NCBI GenBank assembly: GCA_037969075.1
Contig: JBBKWS010000079.1
Coordinates: 1 to 23,769, forward strand
Direction of reading: 5' to 3'
Source: Bdellovibrionales bacterium
GTDB taxonomy: Bacteria > Bdellovibrionota > Bdellovibrionia > Bdellovibrionales > UBA840
DNA: 23,769 nt
A program made the position numbers and the translations under genes. Shown here piece after piece: positions 7,924 to 23,769 of the stretch. The notes beneath the pieces were generated by a model. The model was not told where the DNA came from. It searched no databases and worked only from the letters and a program-made list of their open reading frames with translations. Numbering within the stretch: position 1 is the stretch's first letter; each line of letters begins with the position of its first letter.

Positions 7924-10173
7924 TTACTCTTGTAAGCAATCGACATAATATTTTTTAACCCCATTTTCAATTTCTATTACTAGTCCATGAACATCAGTTT
8001 CAAAACCCGGAAACTCTTCGTTAAATTCCCTAGCAAACTGAAGGTACTGTACAATCAATTCATTGATTTTCTCTCCAGGCACCAAAAGTGGAATTCCCGG
8101 AGGATACGGAGTTAATAGTACAGCTGTTGTTTCTCCTAAAAGCTTGTCTATCTCAACACGCTTGATTTTACCATGAGACATCATCCTAAATGCATTTGCG
8201 GGAGTGGTCGTCACTTTAAATTCAGAGAGATACATTTCAGTTGTAAGCTTAGCAATATTTTCTTTTTTATAAGACGTATGAATTTTTTGACAAAAGTCTT
8301 TCAAACCAAGATCTTTGTATTTTGGATTTCTGTTTGAGAATTTAGGAAGTATTTTTGACATTAGAGCATTGTTATCATAATCTGTTTTGAACTGCTCTAG
8401 CATCGCAAGAAGAGTATTCCATCTTCCCTTTGTAATCCCAATAGTAAACATAATGAAAAATGAATATAAACCGCACTTTTCAACAATCACGCCGTGCTCG
8501 GCAAGGTACTTTGTCACTATGGCAGCCGGAATCCCTGTTACATCAAACTCTCCTGTCATTTTTAAACCAGGAGTCAAAATTGTCGTTCTAACTGGATCTA
8601 ATATATTAAAACCATCCGCTACATTTCCAAAACCATGCCAGTCTTCGTTCGATTTTAATGTCCAATCCTCTTGAGTCCCAATCCCTTCTTCGGCGAGCTT
8701 GTCAGGCCCCCACACCTTAAACCACCAATCATCACCCCACTCAGCCTCAGTCTTTCGCATGGCTCTGCGAAAATCAATAGACTCCACAATACTTTCTTCA
8801 ACAAGCGCCTGACCGCCAGGCCCATCCATCATCGCAGCAGAGACATCGCATGACGCAATAATAGAATACTGCGGACTAGTTGATGTATGCATAAGATAAG
8901 CCTCATTAAATAAATGCTTATTTAGTTTTTTATTTTCTGAATCACTTACTAAAATTTGAGACGCCTGACTTAGACCCGCCAGCATTTTATGAGTTGATTG
9001 CGTTGAAAAGACAATCGATTCCTTTGTTTTGGGTCTATCCTTTCCTATGGCATGCATGTTTTTATATAAATCATGAAAGCCTGCGTGCGGCACCCAGGCC
9101 TCATCAAAATGCAAAACCTCCACCTTGCCGTCGAGCAAGCCTTTAATTGTCTCAACATTATAACTAATCCCATCGTATGTACTTTGCGTGAGAGTCATTA
9201 TCCTTGGTTTTTTTGTTTTATCTTTAATCAGCGGATGAGCGTCAATTTTCTTTTGGAGTGTTTCCATAGAAAACTCTTCTTTAGGAATAGGGCCAATGAT
9301 TCCAAAATGATTTCTTGTTGGAGTCATATATATTGGGATTGCGCCCGTCATAATAATCGCATGTAAATTGGATTTATGGCAGTTGCGATCAACTAATACA
9401 ATATCATCTGGGCCGACGCAAGAATGCCAGACTATCTTGTTAGATGTTGAAGTTCCATTAGTTACAAAAAACAAATGATCTGCATTGAAAATTCTAGCTG
9501 CATTTTTTTCTGAGGCCTCTATGGGACCGGTATGATCTAACAGCTGTCCCAACTCATCGACCGCATTACAAACATCGGATCTTAAAAGATTTTCACCATA
9601 AAACTGATGAAAGACCTTGCCAACGGGCGATTTTAAAAATGCAACTCCGCCAGAGTGGCCTGGACAATGCCAAGAATACGATCCTTTTTGAGCATACTCT
9701 AATAATGATTTAAAAAATGGAGGTACTATTGAATCTAAATAGTCTGCTGTTTCTCGAACAATGTGTTTTCCAATAAACTCTGGTGTGTCCTCATCAAGAT
9801 GTAAAAATCCATGCAACTCTCTAAGAATACTATTCGGAATATGCCTAGAGGTTTTTGTTTCACCGCATAGATAAATAGGTACATCAGAGTTCTTCTTGCG
9901 AATAGTCGTTACCGAATGTTGTAACTCATTAAGTATGCCGCCGCTTTGATCTGGACCAGACTTTTCAAAGTCCTCATCATCGATAGAAAAAATAAATGCT
10001 GCCGCATGTTTTTGATGTTGCACAAAATTCATAACATCTTTACGGCTAGTTGCAGCGAGTACAGAGACCCCCAATTGTTCGATTGCCTTGCTGATCATTC
10101 GAATTCCTTCGCCGCTAGCATTATTGGCGTGGAAGTCTTCATCTATTATTACAACAGGAAAATCCAGCTTCAT
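7924..10173 (-). CDS. Class-I (AAT-fold) PLP-dependent Orn/Lys/Arg decarboxylase with N-terminal wing domain; ornithine decarboxylase by context
   Basis: Motifs WHCPGHSGG, TNGTSTSNK, DRNCHKS, HFDEAW, PLP-lysine motif QSTHKMLAGLSQAS and PYPPGIP. SD GGGAGGA upstream. Substrate inferred, not shown. Confidence 0.93.
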   Translation of the reverse strand: MKLDFPVVIIDEDFHANNASGEGIRMISKAIEQLGVSVLAATSRKDVMNFVQHQKHAAAFIFSIDDEDFEKSGPDQSGGILNELQHSVTTIRKKNSDVPIYLCGETKTSRHIPNSILRELHGFLHLDEDTPEFIGKHIVRETADYLDSIVPPFFKSLLEYAQKGSYSWHCPGHSGGVAFLKSPVGKVFHQFYGENLLRSDVCNAVDELGQLLDHTGPIEASEKNAARIFNADHLFFVTNGTSTSNKIVWHSCVGPDDIVLVDRNCHKSNLHAIIMTGAIPIYMTPTRNHFGIIGPIPKEEFSMETLQKKIDAHPLIKDKTKKPRIMTLTQSTYDGISYNVETIKGLLDGKVEVLHFDEAWVPHAGFHDLYKNMHAIGKDRPKTKESIVFSTQSTHKMLAGLSQASQILVSDSENKKLNKHLFNEAYLMHTSTSPQYSIIASCDVSAAMMDGPGGQALVEESIVESIDFRRAMRKTEAEWGDDWWFKVWGPDKLAEEGIGTQEDWTLKSNEDWHGFGNVADGFNILDPVRTTILTPGLKMTGEFDVTGIPAAIVTKYLAEHGVIVEKCGLYSFFIMFTIGITKGRWNTLLAMLEQFKTDYDNNALMSKILPKFSNRNPKYKDLGLKDFCQKIHTSYKKENIAKLTTEMYLSEFKVTTTPANAFRMMSHGKIKRVEIDKLLGETTAVLLTPYPPGIPLLVPGEKINELIVQYLQFAREFNEEFPGFETDVHGLVIEIENGVKKYYVDCLQE

Positions 10174-10202
10174 TCTTATTCCTCCCGAGTCGCCTCGCCT
10201 AG

Positions 10203-10220
10203 TACGACTATTTATGCACG
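10203..10220 (-). promoter_or_regulatory. Possible weaker ARG box upstream of the decarboxylase
   Basis: Minus strand cgTGCATaaatAGTCGta: left half matches TGMAT, right half is 3/5 of ATKCA. It lies 30 bp upstream of the decarboxylase ATG. Confidence 0.4.
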
Positions 10221-10246
10221 AAAGTTACTTTATAAGCAATAAAACA

Positions 10247-10275
10247 TTGACAATTTCATATACGTAAATAATTAT
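10247..10275 (+). promoter_or_regulatory. Sigma70-type promoter of the argCJBR-hss operon
   Basis: Perfect TTGACA (10247-10252), 17-bp spacer, AATTAT (10270-10275, 4/6 match to TATAAT). Confidence 0.65.
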
Positions 10276-10301
10276 GCATATATGGTGCATAATAATTCAT
10301 T
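10263..10301 (+). promoter_or_regulatory. Tandem ARG boxes (ArgR operator), 18+3+18 bp
   Basis: cgTAAATaattATGCAta (10263-10280), tat spacer, ggTGCATaataATTCAtt (10284-10301). Both fit NNTGMATwwwwATKCANN with canonical 3-bp spacing, and argR is in the operon. Confidence 0.85.
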
Positions 10302-11340
10302 TAATGATTTTAAAAAATCAACGTGTTCGATAGTGGGCGCTCGAGGCTACGCAGGTTTAGAACTTGCTAGGCTTTTACTTGCACATCCTCAAGCAAGTCT
10401 AACTCATTGTTTTGCAACATCTGCTTTTGATTTATCAGCACACCTGTCTAATCCCAAAGCTACACAAGTTCAGTGCCTACCTGATACAGAAATTATGGCA
10501 AACCTAACTGACTATGTGTTTTTAGCCACTCCTGCAGAAGTTTCATTGAAGCTAGCACCTCAGATTATTGCCTCTGGAAAGATAGTCATTGATTTAAGTG
10601 GAGCCTTCAGACTTAAAAAAAGTGACTATCAAAAGTGGTACGGCTTTGAACATACACAAAAAAACACTTTGTTAGATGCGACCTATGGATTGATTCCCTG
10701 GGTGGGGCCATCACGCTCAGAGCGAATGATTGCAAATCCAGGCTGTTACGCTACCTCTATCTTATTAGCACTACTTCCATTAATTAAAGATAATTTAATC
10801 CTCTTGGATTCTATTGTCATAGATGCAAAATCAGGTAGCACTGGCGCCGGAAAAAAAGCTACAGAAGGTCAATTATTTGCTGAAGTTGATGGCGAGTGTC
10901 TGCCTTACAGGGTTGGCCAACATCAACATCTTCCTGAGATTTTAGAAACTATCGAAACTCTTACCGGGGTAAAACTAAACCCCCACATGACAACCTCATT
11001 ACTACCCGTTCGACGAGGAATACTTTCTGGTATATATGCTAAATTAAATGCAAAAAAATCTGTAGAAGATGTAATTCAATCTTACAAAAAATATTATGCC
11101 GACTACCCATTAGTTCGACACGGTTTAGTTTCTGAGAAACCCGAGGGACTCCTCTTAAAGCGTGTCGTTGGAACAGCGAAAACACATATAAGCTATTCGA
11201 CCCAAGAACAGAATTTATATGTATTCTCTTGTATTGATAATTTACTTAAAGGCGCAGCTAGCCAAGCTGTAGAAAATTTTAACCGCTTACTTGATCAATC
11301 CATTGATACTGGATTAAATCAATTGGAGGCCATGACATGA
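10282..11340 (+). CDS. argC: N-acetyl-gamma-glutamyl-phosphate reductase
   Basis: IVGARGYAG, IDLSGAFRL, catalytic ANPGCY, AKSGSTGAG, HQHLPEI, DNLLKGAASQA. Confidence 0.97.
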   Translation: MVHNNSFNDFKKSTCSIVGARGYAGLELARLLLAHPQASLTHCFATSAFDLSAHLSNPKATQVQCLPDTEIMANLTDYVFLATPAEVSLKLAPQIIASGKIVIDLSGAFRLKKSDYQKWYGFEHTQKNTLLDATYGLIPWVGPSRSERMIANPGCYATSILLALLPLIKDNLILLDSIVIDAKSGSTGAGKKATEGQLFAEVDGECLPYRVGQHQHLPEILETIETLTGVKLNPHMTTSLLPVRRGILSGIYAKLNAKKSVEDVIQSYKKYYADYPLVRHGLVSEKPEGLLLKRVVGTAKTHISYSTQEQNLYVFSCIDNLLKGAASQAVENFNRLLDQSIDTGLNQLEAMT

Positions 11341-12533
11341 CACCAGGTCCTGGAGTTCGTCGTACCCCTTTACCAAAGGGATTTCTTGCAAGTGGAGTTA
11401 ATTGTGGAGTTCGCAGATACCGACCTGATATCGGCCTTTTGATATCAGAAGTTCCTGCTGTAGCGGCTGGAGTTTTTACATTAAATGAATGTCGAGCTGC
11501 CCCAGTACTTTACACACAAAGACTTTTACCATCCGATAACGTGCGAGCGATCGTAACAAACTCCGGGCAGGCTAATGCTGCAACTGGATCAGAGGGTATT
11601 GAAAAGAATTTAATGATGGTTTCGGCCATTGCGAAAAACTTAAATTGCGATTTAAATCAAGTGCTTGTAGCAAGCACAGGGAAAATTGGTGAGCAATTAG
11701 ATACAGAAAAGATTCTACCATCTATTTCAGATCTTGTTAAGCGGGCCAATGATTCAGCCGAAAGCTTTGCCACCGCAATTTTAACAACAGATCTTGTACC
11801 TAAATCAATATCCACAACAGTAGTGCTATCGACAGGTACGGTTAGAATCACTGGTATATGCAAAGGCTCAGGAATGATCCACCCAAATATGGCCACCATG
11901 CTTGGTTACATCCTTACTGATGCGAAACTTACTAAAGAACATGCTCAGGATCTATTGAAAAAAACTACCGATGTCAGCTTCAACATGATCAGCGTTGATG
12001 GTGATTCATCAACAAATGATTGCTGCTTTTTAATGGCAAATGGTGTTTCTGGAGTGAGCCCGGTAGATGAAAAAGATATTCAAAAATTTGATACGGCTGT
12101 AAAAAAAATAATGATATTTTTAGCTAAGTCTATTGTAGCCGATGGAGAGGGCGCTTCTAAACTTATAGAAGTGCAAATCAAAGGTTCAGACAATTTCGAA
12201 CTTGCACGCAAAGCCGCAAGAGGACTTACGCTTTCTCCCCTAATCAAAACCGCCGTTCATGGTGAGGATCCTAACTGGGGAAGAATTCTTGCGCGCTTAG
12301 GCGCAGAAAGTATACCTGCTGAGCAACTAAATAAAATGGTTCTTAAAATTCAAGGAGTGACCTTATTTGAAAAAGGCCAGCCCGCACAATTTTCCCGTGA
12401 CGAAGTGAAGAAGTTATTAAAGCAAGCAGAAGTAAAAATCGAAGTAAATCTTCACTCTGGAAAAGAAATTGCCACTGCGTGGGGATGCGATCTTTCGCAT
12501 AAGTATGTAGACATCAATACGGAGTACTCATGA
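11337..12533 (+). CDS. argJ: Ornithine acetyltransferase / glutamate N-acetyltransferase (ArgJ)
   Basis: NSGQANAATG, ASTG.IG, autoproteolysis site KGSGMIHPNMA|TML, DGDSSTND, DGEGA, DPNWGRI, WGCDLS..YV.IN..Y. ATGA overlap with argC; GGAGG SD. Confidence 0.97.
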   Translation: MTPGPGVRRTPLPKGFLASGVNCGVRRYRPDIGLLISEVPAVAAGVFTLNECRAAPVLYTQRLLPSDNVRAIVTNSGQANAATGSEGIEKNLMMVSAIAKNLNCDLNQVLVASTGKIGEQLDTEKILPSISDLVKRANDSAESFATAILTTDLVPKSISTTVVLSTGTVRITGICKGSGMIHPNMATMLGYILTDAKLTKEHAQDLLKKTTDVSFNMISVDGDSSTNDCCFLMANGVSGVSPVDEKDIQKFDTAVKKIMIFLAKSIVADGEGASKLIEVQIKGSDNFELARKAARGLTLSPLIKTAVHGEDPNWGRILARLGAESIPAEQLNKMVLKIQGVTLFEKGQPAQFSRDEVKKLLKQAEVKIEVNLHSGKEIATAWGCDLSHKYVDINTEYS

Positions 12534-13354
12534 AGCAAATAGTTGTTATTAAATTAGGTGGCTCTGCCTTACAAGACAAGACTACAGTCAGCGGACTAGC
12601 TACTTTGATAAAAGGTTACCAAAAACAACGATACAATGTGGTGATAGTTCATGGTGGCGGCCCGGCAATCAATAAAGAGCTAGAAAAGCGCTCTATTACC
12701 TGGAAGTTCGTCGATGGCCAGAGACAAACAACTCCAATAATGATGGATGTTATTAACGACGTCCTTGCTAAGCAAGTAAACTCAATGCTCGTGGACTGCC
12801 TAAGATTTGAGGGTGTTCGATCTTCAGGGCTTTCTGCGGCCGATGATAGAATATTATTATGTAGCCAGCTAAGCCCTGAGCTTATTCAAGTAGGTAAAGT
12901 CGAAACTGTAGATGTTACTGCTATCAAGCCTTATTTTGAAACTGTCCCAAGAGTGACTCCTGTTATCGCGCCCATAGGAATTAGCTTTGAAACCAAAGAA
13001 ATAAAATATAATATCAATGCCGACTGGGCTGCAGTGAAAATTGCTATTGCTCTGAAAGCAAAGAAACTAATTTTTCTAACTGATCAGTCTGGTATTTTAG
13101 ATGCACAAAAAAGATTAATTGAAAAAACTGACCCTGAAGAATTGCAAAAACTTATCGACTCAAAAGTTATTTATGGTGGCATGGCAGTGAAAGTTAGGGC
13201 CATGAGTACCGCTCTTGAATCTGGAATTAAATCAGTACAAGTCATGCATGCGGCATCTACAGCCGAGGCGGTAAACAACAAGTGTCTAGGAACCCTTCTC
13301 GTTAACAAACCAACAAACTTAAAAAATGGATTCTACAGTGGCAGAGCAAAGTAA
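12530..13354 (+). CDS. argB: Acetylglutamate kinase
   Basis: VIKLGGSA, VHGGGP.I, G.RQT, NINAD, LTDQSGILD, GGMAVKV. ATGA overlap with argJ. Confidence 0.95.
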   Translation: MKQIVVIKLGGSALQDKTTVSGLATLIKGYQKQRYNVVIVHGGGPAINKELEKRSITWKFVDGQRQTTPIMMDVINDVLAKQVNSMLVDCLRFEGVRSSGLSAADDRILLCSQLSPELIQVGKVETVDVTAIKPYFETVPRVTPVIAPIGISFETKEIKYNINADWAAVKIAIALKAKKLIFLTDQSGILDAQKRLIEKTDPEELQKLIDSKVIYGGMAVKVRAMSTALESGIKSVQVMHAASTAEAVNNKCLGTLLVNKPTNLKNGFYSGRAK

Positions 13355-13814
13355 AACAGAGGCACAAGAAAGACTTTTGATTTTAAGACAGTTACTTAAA
13401 GACAAAGTTGCCGGAACTCAAGAAGAAATATGTAGCGCTTTACGAGCTAAAAGCTTTGATATTACGCAAAGCACAGTTTCTCGTGATCTAAGACGAATTG
13501 GTGCGGTGAAAACCATTAATGCTAGTGGTGATTTTATATACCGTCTACCCGAGGACCACCGAGTTTTTACTCCAATTAGTGGAAGTTTAAGCGAATTAGT
13601 CACCGACATTCAGAGCAATGAAGTGATGATTGTTGTACACACTAAACCCGGATCAGCTAGTTTACTAGCCACTCACATTGATAACGCAAAAAAATCACTT
13701 GGAATACTAGGAACACTAGCCGGAGACGACGCTATTTTTATAATTCCAGCATCTATTAAAAAAATTTCAACAGTAATAAAAAAAACACAAGAACTTCTAG
13801 ATCCAGAGACTTAG
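13326..13814 (+). CDS. argR: Arginine repressor family regulator
   Basis: wHTH with TQEE and TQSTVSRDL; C-domain HTKPGSA...ID and GTLAGDD. Overlaps the argB end. Confidence 0.95.
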   Translation: MDSTVAEQSKTEAQERLLILRQLLKDKVAGTQEEICSALRAKSFDITQSTVSRDLRRIGAVKTINASGDFIYRLPEDHRVFTPISGSLSELVTDIQSNEVMIVVHTKPGSASLLATHIDNAKKSLGILGTLAGDDAIFIIPASIKKISTVIKKTQELLDPET

Positions 13815-13854
13815 TTTTTTAAAGATTTGCGATAGGTCGCATAAAGGAGGCATA

Positions 13855-15294
13855 ATGCAAAAAAACAATTCTTCAACCAACTACGGTGAAATCACAGGTC
13901 CCATTGTCATTATTGGATTTGGCTCAATTGGCAAAGGTACACTACCTCTTATTGAAAAACATTTCAAATTTGATAAATCACGATTGGTTGTAATTGATCC
14001 ATCTGCAAAAGATAAAAAGCTTTTAGAAGAGCGAGGAATTCAATTTGTTCAAAAAGCTGTTACAAAAGAGAATTACAAAGACTTACTTAAACCTTATTTA
14101 AAAAATGGTGACGGCACTGGTTTTTGCGTCAACCTGTCAGTCGATGTTTCATCTCTTGATATGATAAAGTTTTGCCGAGATATCGGCGTCTATTACATAG
14201 ACACCGTCGTAGAGCCTTGGACCGGTTTTTATTTTGATGATACCAAGAGTACAGCTGATAGGTCTAACTACTCTTTAAGAGAAACTGTTTTAGAAGAAAA
14301 GACAAAAAATAAAGGTGGCATTACGGCTGTTTCATGTTGTGGTGCGAATCCCGGAATGGTTTCTTGGTTCGTAAAGCAAGCTCTACTAAATCTTGCTAAT
14401 GATCTTAAGATAGAACACACAGTGCCTGCAAACCGAACCGAGTGGGCCTTATTAATGCAAAAGGTTGGCGTCAAAGGAATACACATTGCCGAAAGAGACA
14501 CTCAAATATCTAAACGACCAAAGCCGATGAATATTTTTGTTAATACATGGTCAGTGGAAGGATTTGTTAGCGAAGGTCTACAGCCAGCCGAATTAGGCTG
14601 GGGTACGTTTGAAAAATGGATGCCCGAAAATGCATCCACTCATACATCTGGTTGCGGGGCTGCAATTTATCTTAACCAACCTGGGGCGAACACGAAAGTA
14701 AGAACATGGTGTCCAACGCCAGGTCCTCAGTATGGACGACTTGTAACTCATAACGAATCCATCTCAATAGCTGACTACTTTACAGTTAGAAAATCTGATG
14801 AAGTAACTTATCGACCAACATGTCATTACGCTTATCACCCAAGTAATGATGCCATCCTGTCGCTAGAAGAAATGTTTGGTAGGTCTGGTGAACGCCAACA
14901 TGAACAACACATTCTTGACGAAAATGAAATCACCGAAGGGGTTGACGAGCTAGGCGTTTTATTATTTGGGCACGAAAAGAATGCTTATTGGTACGGCTCA
15001 CAACTATCTATCGAAGAAGCTCGAAAGCTAGCTCCATATCAAAATGCAACTGGCCTTCAGGTAACATCTGCAGTTCTAGCAGGAATGGCCTGGGTGCTTG
15101 AAAATCCAGAGGCAGGAATTGTAGAAGCCGATGAAATGGATTTTGCAAGATGCCTTGAGTTTCAATTGCCTTATTTAGGCCCGGTAAATGGATTCTATAC
15201 TGATTGGAATCCATTAAAAGACAGACCTGGATTCTTTCCAGAAGACATTGATGCTAGTGATCCGTGGCAATTCAAGAATGTCATAGTACGCTAA
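13855..15294 (+). CDS. hss: Homospermidine synthase
   Basis: GPIVIIGFGSIG NAD-binding motif, DTVVEPW, SCCGANPGMVSWFVKQAL, NTWSVEGF.SEG.QPAELGWG, HNESISI, YRPTCHYAY, QNATGLQV, DPWQF. Strong AAAGGAGG SD; 40 bp after argR. Confidence 0.97.
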   Translation: MQKNNSSTNYGEITGPIVIIGFGSIGKGTLPLIEKHFKFDKSRLVVIDPSAKDKKLLEERGIQFVQKAVTKENYKDLLKPYLKNGDGTGFCVNLSVDVSSLDMIKFCRDIGVYYIDTVVEPWTGFYFDDTKSTADRSNYSLRETVLEEKTKNKGGITAVSCCGANPGMVSWFVKQALLNLANDLKIEHTVPANRTEWALLMQKVGVKGIHIAERDTQISKRPKPMNIFVNTWSVEGFVSEGLQPAELGWGTFEKWMPENASTHTSGCGAAIYLNQPGANTKVRTWCPTPGPQYGRLVTHNESISIADYFTVRKSDEVTYRPTCHYAYHPSNDAILSLEEMFGRSGERQHEQHILDENEITEGVDELGVLLFGHEKNAYWYGSQLSIEEARKLAPYQNATGLQVTSAVLAGMAWVLENPEAGIVEADEMDFARCLEFQLPYLGPVNGFYTDWNPLKDRPGFFPEDIDASDPWQFKNVIVR

Positions 15295-16915: not shown

Positions 16916-19291
16916 TTAATAACGCTTTTCCCACTGTAAAACAACCTCACCAGCCTGTTCACTTGATTCATTAGGAGCCCAAGACGTTGCAATGACCCAG
17001 CGCTTCGAAAGTCTTTTTCTAATTTCTAATGAAGCATACTGATCAAGACTCGTCCCGATACCTGCTGTCAAGCCTTTACCAAGAACAATCGTTGCTGAGT
17101 AAACTTTTGTGACTGAGTTATAAGACACACTTCGAATCGGAGTTGAAGCAAAAGCCCACAATCCAAATAATCCAACAGCTTTGTCTGCCATTGCAGCTTG
17201 CGCATTACCCGAAGTTTCGGCATCTCCCCCAACCAAATTATCTCGTGTGCGGTCGAATAGTAGAACCGATACAATATCTGGACGATCTAAATAAGGCTCA
17301 CTGCTTAAATCGATGTTTGGCTTTTGTGTTGTGCCAGTGACCCGAATCATGACTTTATGGTTTGTCTGTTGCACATGAAATTTACCATCTATGGGAAAAT
17401 CCGCATCGGCTGTTTCATCAAGATTCAATCTCATTGAATCCACGAAGACAGTTCGCTTTAAATATGTAATTTTGAACGGCTCAATCTTTATATAACCCTT
17501 ATCTATATCACCTTCCCATCCATAGTTGATAGTGATCGGGATAAATGGATCAGCCAATGGATATAAAAGTCGAATCGCACCAGGGCTTAAAGTTTTTATT
17601 TTAAAACTAAGATTTATTTTAGTAGAAGGTTTTTTTTGAATAACCACGGGAGCTAGATGAATTCGCGAGTCTCTAGCAATTCTGGGCATTCCTCTTACAG
17701 GGTCAAGAGGAGGTAATTCAACTTGTAAATCATCAATACTTGCATCCACATCAATATTAATTTTTTTAAAATCCGCTGTCGCGCGCGCTTTAAGTATTGA
17801 TGAGACTTTTACTTTTTGTTTTTTCGACTGAAGATCGGTGGACAAAATCGCTTCGATTGAGATATCACCAGATTTATCCTCTACACTGACAGGGCTTTTT
17901 ATTATTAAATCAATTGCTCCATCTAAAACGTTAAGTGGCGCAGGCACCATAATTTGACCTGCAAGAAGAATTTCTCGCACTTCTTTAAATCGTGAAATAT
18001 GAACTTTTGAATCGATAATTGGATTTAAAAGCCATTTTTCATGTGTACGCATAACCTGAAGACTTGCCCCTAAGTTCAAATTGAAGATTGCATTTTTCAC
18101 TTCTTGCACACGAAGTTCAGCATCAATTGCCGGCAACCCGTCACCTTGTGAAGATAGCAATCTGTTCAACCAAACATCTGCTGTCATTTTAACTTGTAAG
18201 AAGGATGCAAGTTTACAGCTGCATGATGCTTCGATTTGCTTTTTTAGAGATTCATCCATAAAAAATAAAGGTACCGGAGCTTTGACAGTGGCGCTCCCCT
18301 TAGAATTAAGCCATTCTCCTTTTTCAATAGGAAGAATATAGTGGACGTTTATGTTATTTAATTTACTGATTGGACCTGGCAAACCATTAATATCGATTTG
18401 CAGTTTCACGTCTAGCATTCTTTTGTCAGCTAAAATCTGCAGTTGAGGCTTCCATCGAATCCATTTTGAATTCATTTTATACGCACCCTCAATATCCGAT
18501 GCAACTTTTAACTGTTCATCTTTATAAGTAATAGAAATTGGAGTTTTAACTTTGAGGGAATTACTGTTTACGTTTATTACAAAGTTCATAAACGAAGTCT
18601 CTGTACCAAAATGCTTAAGATCAACCGATCCCACTAGATTAACCATTGCTGCAAGTTCAGTTAAATCTTGCAGCTCTACTTCAAATGAGACTTTGTGTGA
18701 TTGCACTTCTGGTTTAGAAATTTTTATAGAAGCCAGAATCGGCTTTGAATCCCCTGACTGGTATTCAAATTTATCGATTGAAATATCTATCTTGTTCAGT
18801 GTAACCCTATCTTGGTAACTCTGAAGAGTTTGAACGATTGATGTGACCTGCTCCAAGGCATCAGATGGATCAAATGGTTTTTGCTTTACATTTGGATCTA
18901 GTTTCTGTCGAATACTTACAGATGAAAGGCTTTTTATATAAAAATTTTTAATTTCAACTTCAGTTCGTGGAAATATAATTGTCGCGCTCAAATCAATAGT
19001 TAGTTCTTCGAGATTTATTATAACTTCAGGATCTAGTTTGGTTACCGAGATATTATCAAATGAGATTTCAAAATCCCAATTCATTCTTTTAACGTGATTA
19101 ACAGAAAAATGAATATCGCTCCAGCTAATTTGTAGATCCTCTGGCAGAAGATGCCTTTCGACAGTTTGCCAAGACTCCTCAGGGTTAAAGTACACCCAAA
19201 GGCCTGCACTCAAAACAACAACTATAGTAAGTGTAGTTATCGCAGTGAAAATGATAAAAATGCACTTGAATGTTTTTTTGAGACGATCCAT
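16916..19291 (-). CDS. tamB: Translocation and assembly module TamB-like protein (DUF490 C-terminus)
   Basis: Uncleaved N-terminal TM anchor, beta-rich body, motif VTGTTQKPNIDLSSEPYLDRPDIVSVLLF, C-terminal QWEKRY. ATG directly follows the stop of the Omp85 gene (TAG-ATG). Confidence 0.8.
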   Translation of the reverse strand: MDRLKKTFKCIFIIFTAITTLTIVVVLSAGLWVYFNPEESWQTVERHLLPEDLQISWSDIHFSVNHVKRMNWDFEISFDNISVTKLDPEVIINLEELTIDLSATIIFPRTEVEIKNFYIKSLSSVSIRQKLDPNVKQKPFDPSDALEQVTSIVQTLQSYQDRVTLNKIDISIDKFEYQSGDSKPILASIKISKPEVQSHKVSFEVELQDLTELAAMVNLVGSVDLKHFGTETSFMNFVINVNSNSLKVKTPISITYKDEQLKVASDIEGAYKMNSKWIRWKPQLQILADKRMLDVKLQIDINGLPGPISKLNNINVHYILPIEKGEWLNSKGSATVKAPVPLFFMDESLKKQIEASCSCKLASFLQVKMTADVWLNRLLSSQGDGLPAIDAELRVQEVKNAIFNLNLGASLQVMRTHEKWLLNPIIDSKVHISRFKEVREILLAGQIMVPAPLNVLDGAIDLIIKSPVSVEDKSGDISIEAILSTDLQSKKQKVKVSSILKARATADFKKINIDVDASIDDLQVELPPLDPVRGMPRIARDSRIHLAPVVIQKKPSTKINLSFKIKTLSPGAIRLLYPLADPFIPITINYGWEGDIDKGYIKIEPFKITYLKRTVFVDSMRLNLDETADADFPIDGKFHVQQTNHKVMIRVTGTTQKPNIDLSSEPYLDRPDIVSVLLFDRTRDNLVGGDAETSGNAQAAMADKAVGLFGLWAFASTPIRSVSYNSVTKVYSATIVLGKGLTAGIGTSLDQYASLEIRKRLSKRWVIATSWAPNESSEQAGEVVLQWEKRY

Positions 19292-21022
19292 CTAAAACTC
19301 TTCTCCAAAACTGATATTGTAGACCCACTCGCGAGGATAGTCAGATGTTTCTATCGAGTTATTCCAAACCTGACCACGTGCTGCTGAAAATCGGAGAGTA
19401 CCAAACGGAGAAACCCAACGAAGACCTGCACCATAAGAAATAAATGTGGGCGAAATAAATTCATATTGGCGTGTGCCAAGCTTAGCCGAATCAAACAATA
19501 ATAATGGCTCAAGATTATAAGGGGCAACTTGAACAAGTCTAAATTCAAAACCAGCAAGAAGTGAAGAAATATATCCTCTTCCTTCGTTATCCAATGTATG
19601 ACGTGAAAACCCACGGATATTATTGTTACCACCATAAAAAATACGAAGATCCACTGGTAAATCGGTAATCTCGGTTGGATCGTCTCGGTGGTGGGTATCA
19701 ACAAATGTAGTTTCGAAGCGACTTGCAATTACAATAAGTGGAGGGGCGTAAGCATTTACATTGTATAAATACTTAAGCCTTATATCATAGCGATCGACAT
19801 TAAGACCTGAACCAATTTTCTTTCTCTGTCCCGTGTACTTAACATCTCCTGTCCAACCTTCAAATTGTGAGCGCGAAAAAGCTTCGTAAGAGTGACTTGC
19901 GGCTGACAGAGACCCATCCCAAGATAAATAATTGAGTTCGTCAGGCCCTTGTCCACTCACAGTCTTAAGATAATTGAGCGTTGGGCCCAATCTACCCTTC
20001 ACTCTAATATGAGAAATATCCCATGCCCGCCCGATATCAGACCCGACCTCACCCTTATTGGACTCGAATGATCTTTCATTTTTACGCTCAAATTTAAGTC
20101 GTGGGCCGACAAAAGTTCGATACGAGTTCGCAAGGACATAAAGTTCTGAACTAAGCTCAAGAGTTTGTCTAATATTTGAAGCATGAAGTTGGGCTAAAAA
20201 GCTTGAGGCCCTATCATCGAGACGCGAATTTTTAAACCAAACATCAGCAAACGGAAATTCTTCCGTCGAAGCACCCACACTAAAGCGCAGAAGTTTTGGC
20301 TTACCAACTTCAGAAATAAAATTCAAATCAACTTTATCGTCATGACAAATAGTAGTTATATAGGCATTTTGAAATAATCCTTGCGCCATCACACGGTCGA
20401 TGGTGATCTCGGTCTCGATAACATTGTATTGCCCGCCTGGCTCGAAGGCTTCATATCTTTTTAAAGCCTCCAGATCTAATGTACCGTAGCCAGAACGAAA
20501 AATTTCGCCGATTGACTGAACTGGCCCAGCCTCAACATCTGCGAACATTTTATAATCCCAGGCTTGTGCTCGCATTTCGATTTTAGGACATGCATGACCT
20601 TGACGTTTTGCTTCGAGTTCAATCCAGTTTTTAACCTCATCTAATTTTTGCGGAACCATCGGCTCCCCGACAATCTTTCTTTTTTTACTAACCTCCACCA
20701 CCCCATTAGACCCGGTAATAATCAGCTGACTGGTCTCAGCTCTCTTGCCCTTTTTTACAATCAATTTATCCCCAGTGTTCTCAAAGGTCGCATCAAGATA
20801 GCCTGCATTCTGCAAAAGAACATTCAGTTGGTACTGCGCTTGAAGAAGTGGGACTTTTTTCCAAGCTTGATCTGATTCTTTAGTACCACAAACTAAAACC
20901 TTCTCGTTTTCACTAAGGTCAAAGCTACTATCAATGATCATAATATCGGGGTTTGAACACAGTTTTTGATCGGCGAAGGCATAAGAACTAAAAATGAGGA
21001 AATAGAGCATGGTTTTCAACAT
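19292..21022 (-). CDS. tamA: Omp85 (BamA/TamA family) outer membrane protein, TamA-like
   Basis: Signal peptide (..SSYAFA), POTRA-like region, FYGGNNNIRGF lid-loop motif, YGAGLRWVSPFGTLRF, C-terminal ISFGEEF. Paired with tamB. Confidence 0.85.
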   Translation of the reverse strand: MLKTMLYFLIFSSYAFADQKLCSNPDIMIIDSSFDLSENEKVLVCGTKESDQAWKKVPLLQAQYQLNVLLQNAGYLDATFENTGDKLIVKKGKRAETSQLIITGSNGVVEVSKKRKIVGEPMVPQKLDEVKNWIELEAKRQGHACPKIEMRAQAWDYKMFADVEAGPVQSIGEIFRSGYGTLDLEALKRYEAFEPGGQYNVIETEITIDRVMAQGLFQNAYITTICHDDKVDLNFISEVGKPKLLRFSVGASTEEFPFADVWFKNSRLDDRASSFLAQLHASNIRQTLELSSELYVLANSYRTFVGPRLKFERKNERSFESNKGEVGSDIGRAWDISHIRVKGRLGPTLNYLKTVSGQGPDELNYLSWDGSLSAASHSYEAFSRSQFEGWTGDVKYTGQRKKIGSGLNVDRYDIRLKYLYNVNAYAPPLIVIASRFETTFVDTHHRDDPTEITDLPVDLRIFYGGNNNIRGFSRHTLDNEGRGYISSLLAGFEFRLVQVAPYNLEPLLLFDSAKLGTRQYEFISPTFISYGAGLRWVSPFGTLRFSAARGQVWNNSIETSDYPREWVYNISFGEEF

Positions 21023-21155
21023 AAAGCAGCTCTACGTGTTAGGAATATTTTGCGGTTTTGTCACGATATTTGCCGGTTGATTCTGCAAAATCTCTATGTT
21101 TCTAAATCTCTGTATGCCATTTAATCCAAATGAAAACAACCCAGCCCGTGACTCA

Positions 21156-23747
21156 CTAAAATAACGATTTACAAGAAGTCGCATCCATTTCCATATGAGG
21201 CATATCCGCTAGTTCTTTGTGATTATTAAGACTGGCCTCAATGGCAATAAAGCCTTCGCTATTGGTAGTTCTTGTCAGAAAAATGGTATCTCCTGGTGCA
21301 TACTCGGCGTTGCCAGTGATTTTTTGCACGGCCCCTTTAATATAGGCATCTACCGCATTTAAACTTGGCCTTACTCCTCTTAGTAGTGGATTTTCGGCTC
21401 TTAAAAAATCTTCTATTAGACGTGCATCTACTTCTAATTTAAGCCCTGATGACTCCAGCATCTCTACTCGAATCGCATCTATCGCGCGCGATAAAATTTC
21501 AGTGCTAATTTTCATAGGTAATACTGATGAAACCGACACCACATCCATTCGATTGATAATATAATCTGGCACTTTATTTTCAAATAACTTACGAAGTTCT
21601 GCTGTAGTCATTTCTATAAGCCTTTTATTAATCTGCTCCTCTGTCCACTTCACCACATCATCAGGAAAGATAGTATGAGCCCCCTCATTAGAGGTAAGAA
21701 CAATCATGTGCTTATTTAGACGACGAATTTTATTATCGCCACCTTCAACAATGCCCTTATCAAACATTTCCATCAGAGATTCAAAAAACAATAAATTAGC
21801 CTTCTCTACTTCATCAATAATTATAATCCCGCCAAACTTACCTTTTGCAGGATCATCTAACCAATCCATTAAACGACCCGCGGTGTGTTTACCAAAAGTA
21901 ACTCCACCCGGAACACCAAGAAGCATACTCATCTTAATATCGTTAGCATCACTATACTGACTGGCCTTAATCATAAAGACTCGCTCTTTTGATTTAAGCG
22001 CTAGCTCGGCGAGTACCTCTGCCGTTTCCGTTTTACCAGTACCAGATCTACCAAGCACTAAACCAACCTTTACGCCCCTCTTGCCTTCATTACGAACCAC
22101 GGACAACCATAAATTAACAAAATCATTTACCATTCGCTCTTGACCCAGAACCCGCGCACTTACTTTTTCAAATAAATCTTTGCGGTATTTTTCCATGGCT
22201 TTCGCATCACGAGGATCGGCCGGTAGCCCATGCTCTTTTTGAACAAAATCATATACATCTGTTTTGTTTAAAGTTACGCGAGAGACTCCTTCTTTATATC
22301 GCTTGTGATTTAGTAAGTCGTCGGCAAAAACAAAGCTGCCGTCCAAAACTCCTTTATCAGGAAATACCAATCCGACTTTACGAATTATAAGCTTCATTAC
22401 ATCTTCATTAATTTCTGAGTCAGCATATAGAATTTTAAATAGTGGCATCCATGATTTTTTAAAAATTTCTAAGATTTCTGCCTCAGAAAACTCTCTGACC
22501 GCTACTTCTTGAACTCTTCGTAGCAAAGCTCCATTATGTTTGAACGTCGACCTAAACTCCGGTGATGTGCTTGCGCCAATTAGCATGATTTTACTTGATG
22601 TAGATTCGATGAACGGTTTGATAGCCTCAATTTGAACTTCGGTAAGAGTATGAAACTCATCAATAAATACTATCACCCTGCGGTCAATTTGCTTTTGTAC
22701 TTCATTAATAGCAGAAAAGTAAGCTTCAATGGCATCGGCTTGACCCGCTGGCTTATCTGTTTTTGCAAGCCTTGAAATACGGCCAGAAGTGGTCGTGATG
22801 ACTGTGGCATTTTTAAAAATCTCTGTAACTACATTATCCGTGTATTGTCCTGTTACTAAACCAAATGAAAAGCCCTCAACAATGGCTGTTTTACCTGCTC
22901 CGGCTGATCCAATGAGTACGGCATTTTGTTGCCTATGCCTCGATAAAACCATTAGTAATCGTTCAACCACATCTTCTCGGCCAAGAATTTTGGCGTACTT
23001 ACCATCTTTTAATTTATCATAAACATCATCTGTCATGAACTTAGTTGTACCAGCTAAAAGAATGTCAACCGGGCCAGAATCTCCAGCCTTTACAGGGCCC
23101 GCTGATTGACGCCCTTTCTTTAGCCCGCGAATTTGGTCTTCGAACTTTACATATCCCTCTAAGGCTTCTCTTTGCTTAATATCCTCAATCCCTAAAGCTT
23201 CTCTAGATAAGGATGCATGTTTATACGCAGTACTAAGCTCAGAAATAATGTGTGCGTTAATACCACTAAGCTCTGGAAAAAGCTTTGAACCCACTTCTGT
23301 ACGCAACTTTGCTGCCTCGAGAGCTTCATCAATATATCTTATGAATTCTGTTTTAGTAGCGCTAGTATTTCTAGAAGGATGAGACTGAAGCCAAATAGTT
23401 AAACGATCTCTAAGATCTAATAGTTTAGATTCACCACTTTGCAAAACATTCGACGGATGCACGTGACTACGGTTAGTAATTTCGCCGATAGTTTTAATAT
23501 AGTACTCAATAACTTTTTTACTTTTTTTATCGTTGATAGCTGTAATAGCCTGCTCTATCACTACATCCGCCACATCGGTATAGCGATAGTCTTTTAAAAC
23601 ATCGAGCCCTGCTATAATTCTACGTTCGTTATTACTATGAATGGCGTCCCAGATGACTAAGAACTCAGATTGCTTCGCATCAAGTGCGACCGCTTGTAAA
23701 TTAGAAGATATGAAAAGAAGAGCTAAAAAAACTATAAAAGCGCGCAT
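21156..23747 (-). CDS. ClpA/ClpB-like double AAA+ ATPase with predicted signal peptide and non-canonical N-domain
   Basis: D1: ILGRE, GSAGAGKT, VFIDEFH, ALLRR. D2: VLGQE, GRSGTGKT, IIDEVEKA, LTSN, NRMD, GVRP. No M-domain. ATG 23747 has GGGGA SD; N-terminus MRAFIVFLALLFISSNLQA. Confidence 0.85.
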   Translation of the reverse strand: MRAFIVFLALLFISSNLQAVALDAKQSEFLVIWDAIHSNNERRIIAGLDVLKDYRYTDVADVVIEQAITAINDKKSKKVIEYYIKTIGEITNRSHVHPSNVLQSGESKLLDLRDRLTIWLQSHPSRNTSATKTEFIRYIDEALEAAKLRTEVGSKLFPELSGINAHIISELSTAYKHASLSREALGIEDIKQREALEGYVKFEDQIRGLKKGRQSAGPVKAGDSGPVDILLAGTTKFMTDDVYDKLKDGKYAKILGREDVVERLLMVLSRHRQQNAVLIGSAGAGKTAIVEGFSFGLVTGQYTDNVVTEIFKNATVITTTSGRISRLAKTDKPAGQADAIEAYFSAINEVQKQIDRRVIVFIDEFHTLTEVQIEAIKPFIESTSSKIMLIGASTSPEFRSTFKHNGALLRRVQEVAVREFSEAEILEIFKKSWMPLFKILYADSEINEDVMKLIIRKVGLVFPDKGVLDGSFVFADDLLNHKRYKEGVSRVTLNKTDVYDFVQKEHGLPADPRDAKAMEKYRKDLFEKVSARVLGQERMVNDFVNLWLSVVRNEGKRGVKVGLVLGRSGTGKTETAEVLAELALKSKERVFMIKASQYSDANDIKMSMLLGVPGGVTFGKHTAGRLMDWLDDPAKGKFGGIIIIDEVEKANLLFFESLMEMFDKGIVEGGDNKIRRLNKHMIVLTSNEGAHTIFPDDVVKWTEEQINKRLIEMTTAELRKLFENKVPDYIINRMDVVSVSSVLPMKISTEILSRAIDAIRVEMLESSGLKLEVDARLIEDFLRAENPLLRGVRPSLNAVDAYIKGAVQKITGNAEYAPGDTIFLTRTTNSEGFIAIEASLNNHKELADMPHMEMDATSCKSLF

Positions 23748-23769
23748 CAAAAATCCCCATGGATTATGA

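Follow-up and report, generated by a model that had tools for sequence, protein, structure and literature searches.

On the minus strand of the window (the whole stretch of DNA analysed, 23,769 nucleotides in length), a gene designated P0001 encodes a protein that is, by its sequence, a divergent Clp/Hsp100 two-ring ATPase and an extra copy beside the genome's ClpA and ClpB. It belongs to a previously undescribed family for which export is predicted, and it ends in a short cysteine tag. The explanation we favour, with a probability of roughly 0.45, is that P0001 is cargo delivered into prey, where its ring would run on prey ATP and pull prey proteins apart. The idea of an exported effector, already raised in the original prediction, is the best reading because the signal-like start is conserved and all named relatives come from a phylum with predatory cultured members; it is strengthened because the tag is common to other ATP-dependent enzymes. 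Clp ATPases are cytoplasmic, and the periplasm is generally without ATP; an exported bacterial Clp motor would break the rule of cytoplasmic Hsp100 machines.

Gene, domains and place among the Clp/Hsp100 proteins

The features of the gene and its product are as follows.

21156..23747, minus strand: AAA+ gene P0001, 863 aa, divergent Clp/Hsp100 two-module protein (ORF and domain searches)
23754..23758, minus strand: ribosome-binding site GGGGA, 6 nt 5' of the P0001 ATG (sequence)
23685..23747, minus strand: predicted Sec signal peptide, residues 1-19 or 1-21 (hydropathy rule and family conservation)
23295..23690, minus strand: HEAT/ARM-like helical N-domain, residues 20-151 (structure model)
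23043..23294, minus strand: low-confidence helical linker, residues 152-235 (structure model)
22218..23042, minus strand: AAA+ module D1 (motif alignment)
22887-22910, minus strand: D1 Walker A, residues 280-287
22728-22778, minus strand: D1 pore loop, AKTDK where ClpB has AKY
22656-22670, minus strand: D1 Walker B, residues 360-364
22515-22520, minus strand: D1 Arg fingers R410/R411
21204..22217, minus strand: AAA+ module D2 (motif alignment)
22029-22052, minus strand: D2 Walker A, residues 566-573
21891-21920, minus strand: D2 pore loop, GVPGGVTFG instead of GYVG
21810-21824, minus strand: D2 Walker B, residues 642-646
21549-21551, minus strand: D2 Arg finger R733
21369-21371, minus strand: D2 sensor-2 R793
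21159..21179, minus strand: C-terminal tag (T)SCKSLF with C859, C-x-x-L-F (sequence and low-confidence tethered helix in the model)

Only 22 bp separate the ATG at 23747 from the end of the contig. Contig C9 matches the window end at the start of P0001 exactly over 119 bp; on it, a stop some 45 codons upstream closes the frame, without an in-frame ATG between, and a divergent gene is situated some 200 bp away. Positions 20500-23769 are covered without indels by contigs from two runs of one sample, from which this DNA may stem. With a clean ATG, the GGGGA site and the closed upstream frame, the open reading frame at 21156-23747 is confirmed. A true start further downstream, which would have undermined the original prediction, is unlikely because the second in-frame methionine is residue 238 and a start there would remove a domain that relatives conserve. 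Upstream of the gene, consensus promoter patterns for sigma-54, FliA and sigma-70 gave no strict match on the one strand scanned.

ClpV (TssH) proteins are linked to type VI secretion clusters; by Pfam search and contig overlap, the neighbours of P0001 are tamA/tamB and a glutaredoxin-like gene. The pair tamB and tamA, single-copy in the genome, occupies window positions 16916-21022, 133 bp downstream of the AAA gene. A functional tie of P0001 to tamA/tamB was dropped, since the linkage is not conserved in relatives: matches to tamA, tamB or the upstream gene were found at 0 of 28 family loci (mostly 1.5-kb flanks), and no conserved neighbour gene of the AAA family emerged among the loci compared. 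Elsewhere in the window, 7924-15294 holds an Arg/Orn/Lys decarboxylase-like gene, argC-argJ-argB-argR and a homospermidine-synthase-like gene, which we take to be a polyamine/arginine cluster, the gene names being given by sequence resemblance.

The hallmarks of class I Clp/Hsp100 proteins are present, namely two tandem AAA+ modules, Walker A/B motifs, sensors, Arg fingers and the fold. Thus, the two modules with intact Walker A/B motifs and an arginine finger, as originally described, are confirmed, and sensors can be added to them (sensor-1 is T394 in D1, and the D2 sensor-1 region reads TSN at 685-687). The AlphaFold model has a mean pLDDT of 92.4, and its top Foldseek matches are ClpC, ClpA and ClpB chains with TM 0.72-0.75 by target length, these being core-only chains. 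By homology, P0001 would form a hexamer, hydrolyse ATP and thread substrates.

The N-region of about 230 residues is indeed not of the Clp type, with no Pfam match to Clp_N (PF02861) at E<=0.01. Compared by VIA-align, the N-domain model resembles HEAT/ARM solenoids (best Z 9.2, rmsd 3.8, 111 aligned); as many such solenoids match, the model points to a common arrangement only. Foldseek gave nothing for the N-domain at E<=0.001, and the ESM Atlas gave no usable match for residues 20-235. This HEAT-like domain is likely a target-binding domain.

P0001 is not ClpA, ClpB or ClpC, since the Clp N-domain, the M-domain, the ClpP-docking loop and the canonical pore tyrosines are all missing. An IGF/IGL ClpP-docking loop after D2 sensor-1 is a trait of ClpA/ClpC; it is absent from P0001 at the aligned position, where the host's own ClpA has MG and a ClpC control has LGF. 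No ClpP in the host genome was matched by a ClpP motif. The coiled-coil M-domain between D1 and D2 is missing, leaving a gap of about 110 residues relative to ClpB. P0001 stays below the curated NCBIfam cut-offs for ClpA, ClpB, ClpV, ClpG and ClpK, its scores being about one sixth or less, with 158/885 for ClpV, 155/993 for ClpA, 152/1232 for ClpB and 108/1900 for ClpK (score/cut-off). Neither an HExxH motif nor two N-terminal membrane helices, as in FtsH/M41 proteins, were found in P0001. The ordinary ClpA and ClpB of the host genome are kept, both without signals.

Compared with ClpA/ClpC, P0001 shares the tandem AAA+ modules, fold and catalytic residues, with Walker A motifs spaced 286 aa apart (280 in the ClpA of the same genome). 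It differs in its identity of only about 20-25%, the signal peptide, the Cys tail, the HEAT-like domain replacing Clp_N, the lack of the IGF/IGL loop and pore tyrosines, and the ClpA score of 155 bits against a cut-off of 993. Hence, of the original label "ClpA-like", ring spacing and fold stand, while membership in ClpA does not. The best PDB sequence matches are ClpB/Hsp104 (E 9e-31); both they and P0001 are without the ClpP loop, which suggests remodelling without a docked protease. Unlike ClpB/Hsp104, P0001 lacks Clp_N, is predicted to be exported and has no M-domain, which implies no Hsp70 coupling. The likeness to FtsH concerns the relatives: in 60 of 84, an AAA+ ring feeds a C-terminal M41 domain with HExxH. 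P0001 itself has no M41 domain, the relatives' rings are Clp-type, the third being most like ClpB D2, and they have one signal where FtsH has two membrane helices.

Signal-like start, long relatives and distribution

P0001 begins with MR and an uncharged hydrophobic core (best 10-residue KD window 3.5), followed by a cleavage-like site after LQA or AVA with small residues at -3/-1. The marks of a Sec/SPI signal, namely a basic n-region, a hydrophobic core, the -3/-1 residues and family conservation, were all found by rule (signal calls throughout follow a simple hydropathy rule), and P0001 is predicted to be exported via Sec. A lipobox Cys after the signal is absent, the sole cysteine being residue 859, so the protein does not classify as a lipoprotein (SPII); lipobox-like cysteines occur in 2 of 68 signal-bearing family rows. 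P0001 has no second membrane segment, because its peak 19-residue hydropathy beyond residue 25 is 1.1. A return membrane segment is also missing in 83/84 family rows, the one exception being a mis-started signal.

A signal-like start was found in 68/84 aligned relatives, and in 81 of all 113 top family rows, vs 2/114 ordinary Clp matches; several of the misses are mis-started database entries with the signal in the DNA (P0005 in L005; P0128 in L007). The Sec-type N-terminus that the original prediction described (MR, core, LQA) is borne out as a single hydrophobic segment with a cleavage-like site. Its idea of an exported protein gains support from this family-wide start, and most homologs do carry signal-like starts, as it had proposed to check. 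Its alternative of a membrane-anchored remodeller fares poorly, as P0001 has no second membrane segment.

A related reading keeps the protein on the predator side: the start would be an uncleaved anchor or unused, and the ATPase would work in the predator cytoplasm, like FtsH. ATP is available there, and the long relatives join AAA+ to M41, as FtsH does. We hold this to be quite improbable in view of the single hydrophobic segment with its basic N-end and cleavage-like site, the almost general lack of a return segment and the clean start and ribosome-binding site; moreover, it would leave the shared tag unexplained.

Six close relatives share 39-49% identity with P0001, far above ordinary Clps, and a profile search extends the family to about a hundred 50%-clusters. 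Among the 84 aligned rows, hand-picked from 113 top rows for good D1-D2 coverage, 60 continue into a third AAA+ ring and carry a zinc protease of the FtsH type (HExxH); Peptidase_M41 matches are present among the family rows scanned. We read these long relatives as self-contained ATP-dependent proteases that would digest what they unfold. In a FastTree phylogeny of 94 rows rooted on 11 Clps, P0001 falls in a starred 10-row short clade inside the M41-bearing forms; given this nesting, the short clade likely arose by loss of the third ring and protease. A split partner, with third ring or M41 provided in trans, was rejected: neither a long form nor a free M41 partner turned up in the host genome, which has only FtsH, or in genome G401. 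Genome G405 holds both long and short forms.

Both pore loops of P0001 are without the canonical tyrosine (AKTDK in D1, GVTFG in D2), and for this reason P0001 may thread weakly or not at all. The only candidate to replace the lost pore tyrosine is an aromatic residue at position 618 (F618 in P0001), kept in 9/11 short-clade rows. P0001 could thus be delivered without threading, as an uncoupled ATPase draining prey ATP or as a scaffold or partner subunit. Besides the loss of both tyrosines, such a role would suit the GYVG-like loop, which in the long forms is best kept in the third ring that P0001 lacks (Y/F in 32/57 rows with the residue), and the D-to-N change in the D2 Walker B motif of 57/84 family rows. 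However, the short clade conserves loops of its own (LAKTDKPAGQA and GVPGGVxF) and a mostly intact D2 Walker B, and no partner was found in the host genome or G401, with both forms together in G405; we rate a non-threading role as improbable.

All named relatives belong to the Bdellovibrionota or are MAGs placed in that phylum, which is the outcome of the taxonomic check suggested at the outset. Cultured members of the Bdellovibrionota are known as predators. The AAA family occurs in at least 24/401 genomes of the phylum, a lower bound as two candidates were scored per genome; by the same scoring, it was found in 0/26 genomes of genus g11, where a tagged kinase was found in 24/26. A metagenome scan added one fragment and one known locus.

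Several further proteins deserve mention. P0140 at L017 (G015:C172) is a long family member of 2327 aa with a C-terminal FGE-sulfatase domain fusion. G403:C30:425607-430214 and G403:C11:57270-60736 hold more multi-AAA ORFs (1217, 935, 929 and 784 aa) beyond ClpA/ClpB, and two other signal-bearing triple ClpB-D2 proteins, P0226 and P0261, do not carry the tag.

A terminal cysteine tag on unrelated proteins

C859 is the only cysteine of P0001. Neither this cysteine tail nor the loss of both pore tyrosines formed part of the original prediction. A Cys within the last 25 residues is found in 74/84 relatives vs 2/114 ordinary Clps, and the C-x-x-x-L/F motif in 57/84 family rows vs 0/114; internal cysteines amount to 0.08% in the family vs 0.26% in controls. 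A median of 8 residues follows the tag Cys, and the linker ahead of the tag is highly variable in length among close relatives.

The tag recurs in unrelated enzymes. Counted over the 30 top loci per family, ABC1 kinases have a signal in 29/30, the tail in 30/30 and a single Cys in 29/30 cases, with 24/30 loci from one genus; CP-ATP-grasp proteins have a signal in 27/30, the strict tail in 14/28 and a Cys among the final 25 residues in 28/29. In 773 kb of genome G403, from regions chosen partly for their AAA and kinase matches, 9/722 ORFs end in C-x-x-L-F vs 0.1 expected. All nine pass a loose rule for signal-like starts, which 341/722 pass as well; four are adjacent, and four are ATP-dependent by Pfam or homology, the set including a long AAA-M41 protein, two ABC1 kinases and one CP-ATP-grasp enzyme. 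Taken together, these sequences tie the long AAA form and the tag into one phenomenon, which covers at least three ATP-dependent families that are unrelated to each other.

One G403 locus, L008 (G403:C41:36109-52897), consists of five adjacent signal-bearing genes (863, 1677, 1441, 1251 and 308 aa), with a C-terminal tag on four and an N-terminal tag on one, encoding an ABC1 kinase, an AAA-M41 protease, two unknowns and a hydrolase; this gene group is a candidate effector island.

Enrichment in the host genome is modest, with 4/2211 complete ORFs tagged vs 0.72 expected, beyond which the tag is also on P0001 and on a 5'-truncated Hanks-type protein kinase (G000:C146:1-654). A looser motif showed no significant association with signals there (p 0.35). 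Tagged, signal-bearing ORFs without a Pfam family lie at G000:C140:6928-9540, C65:41557-42711, C14:7623-8645, C14:14445-15509 and C6:17102-18079, and several tagged host proteins with hydrophobic helices could insert in membranes. The same genome holds near-identical 912-aa ORFs resembling isoleucyl-tRNA synthetase (G000:C55:9393-12131 and C91:1976-4714), a duplication that fits 5.7% contamination or a strain mix.

The AAA gene itself was the sole clearly tagged long ORF in random samples of G208 (193 kb) and G172 (200 kb). A scan of G126 for exact C-x-x-L-F-TAA/TAG gave 30 matches, none at the end of a credible ORF, with a pattern that is blind to the kinase tail C-E-M-V-F-N of this genome. 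At L052-L061 (G172:C5), an ORF family ends in a shared CVRRF tail of the kind typically seen in DGR-target-like lectin folds.

The tag also occurs at the N-end, just after the signal, in 4/273 signal-bearing ORFs of G403 vs 0.29 expected and in 4/793 of the host genome vs 0.93 expected. Here, the cargo includes an AMP-binding/acyltransferase enzyme, an aldehyde dehydrogenase, an alpha/beta hydrolase and a Tsp/Prc protease; because the latter two carry the tag, not all tagged proteins need ATP or cytoplasm.

As Tsp/Prc proteases are normally periplasmic, this cargo raises the reading that P0001 is exported and tagged but never acts in the prey cytoplasm. Its site would be the periplasm of the prey, the junction between predator and prey or the predator surface, to which it would be tethered, and it would use ATP leaking from damaged prey. 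The tagged acyl-ACP-type AMP-binding enzyme and aldehyde dehydrogenase speak against it, as the cofactors of such enzymes are cytoplasmic. Known Cys-containing C-terminal tags give surface display, according to bioRxiv 2023.06.07.544157, which would suit an outside location, as would an ATP uptake system of B. bacteriovorus that is cited in PMC13689555. PMC13689555, however, describes a prey cytoplasmic membrane that is kept intact, with prey macromolecules degraded behind it; on balance, we consider an outside site rather unlikely.

The nearest known counterparts of the tag are MYXO-CTERM-type sorting signals, which likewise place an invariant Cys in a C-terminal tag on unrelated exported proteins (bioRxiv 2023.06.07.544157). 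Every known C-terminal signal with a Cys requires both a membrane helix and an Arg cluster, which in the MYXO-CTERM type follow the Cys; the P0001-type tag has neither, also occurs at the mature N-end and has cargo that includes ATP-dependent enzymes. No mention of Bdellovibrio was found in the passages of the preprint that were searched, and four tagged non-AAA proteins gave no NCBIfam match to MYXO-CTERM-type signals at E<=1. In the literature searched, mostly outside subscription papers, no published description of the AAA family or the tag was found.

Predicted route into prey

For delivery into prey, we envisage the following course. After export by Sec to the periplasm of the presumed predator, P0001 would remain idle there for want of ATP, so that no immunity gene would be needed to protect the predator itself. 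The tag would be read by a second sorting step as a short, flexibly tethered helix at the free end of the mature chain, its Cys perhaps forming a disulfide to a carrier or taking a lipid modification. In the prey cytoplasm, the hexamer would, by homology, assemble, and prey targets would be captured by the HEAT-like N-domain and then undergo ATP-driven unfolding or disassembly. P0001 would itself descend from exported three-ring Clp-M41 fusion proteases by loss of ring and protease. More generally, and tentatively at somewhat short of even odds, we propose a hitherto undescribed two-step route of the Bdellovibrionota in which Sec and a terminal single-Cys C-x-x-hydrophobic-F/L tag send cytoplasmic-type enzymes into the prey cytoplasm to run on prey ATP, the cargo being Clp-type motors, Clp-M41 proteases, ABC1 and Hanks-type kinases and ATP-grasp ligases. 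If true, this would make P0001 the first Hsp100 of a bacterium to serve as an injected effector, and the tag a portable signal for protein delivery into bacteria. The host genome holds 3 secretins and 8 matches to PilB/GspE-type ATPases.

Instead of being cargo, P0001 might, by analogy with HSP101 in Plasmodium PTEX, drive the delivery machine as its motor and unfold the tagged cargo where it meets the prey membrane. The hydrophobic helices of several tagged host-genome proteins without a Pfam family would fit such a task. Nevertheless, the AAA family is patchy (24/401 genomes; 0/26 in g11 against 24/26 for the tagged kinase, two candidates being scored per genome) and has no conserved neighbour gene, and we regard a delivery motor as highly improbable. 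PTEX does, according to PMC7355975, provide the precedent of an Hsp100, HSP101/ClpB2, that acts outside its maker's cytoplasm at the host interface and drives export across a host-side membrane. This protein, however, is eukaryotic, keeps its NTD, M-domain and tyrosine pore loops and has a dedicated pore partner in PTEX, whereas none was found for P0001.

Delivery of P0001 as cargo would bear on the question of how predators of the Bdellovibrio type bring about the death and digestion of prey whose inner membrane stays intact. Predator secretion is called largely unexplored in PMC12622784, and secreted predator proteins alone can kill prey according to PMC11003981. A tagged ABC1 kinase, CAE80164.1, is present in B. 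bacteriovorus; from matching name and strain, it is probably Bd2345/Q6MKP3, the other ABC1 entry being the UbiB-type Bd0422. Because this tagged kinase sits in a genetically tractable species, the tag makes the question of prey delivery testable. Bd2345 was not found in five supplementary files on the empty-bdelloplast proteome (PMC11003981), a study in which, as its authors state, early proteins can be missed. In PMC12546842 (supplement 5), Bd2345 shows no significant change at other time points of predation, and at 30-60 min it is up by 0.88-0.94 log2 (FDR 0.03-0.04, imputed values).
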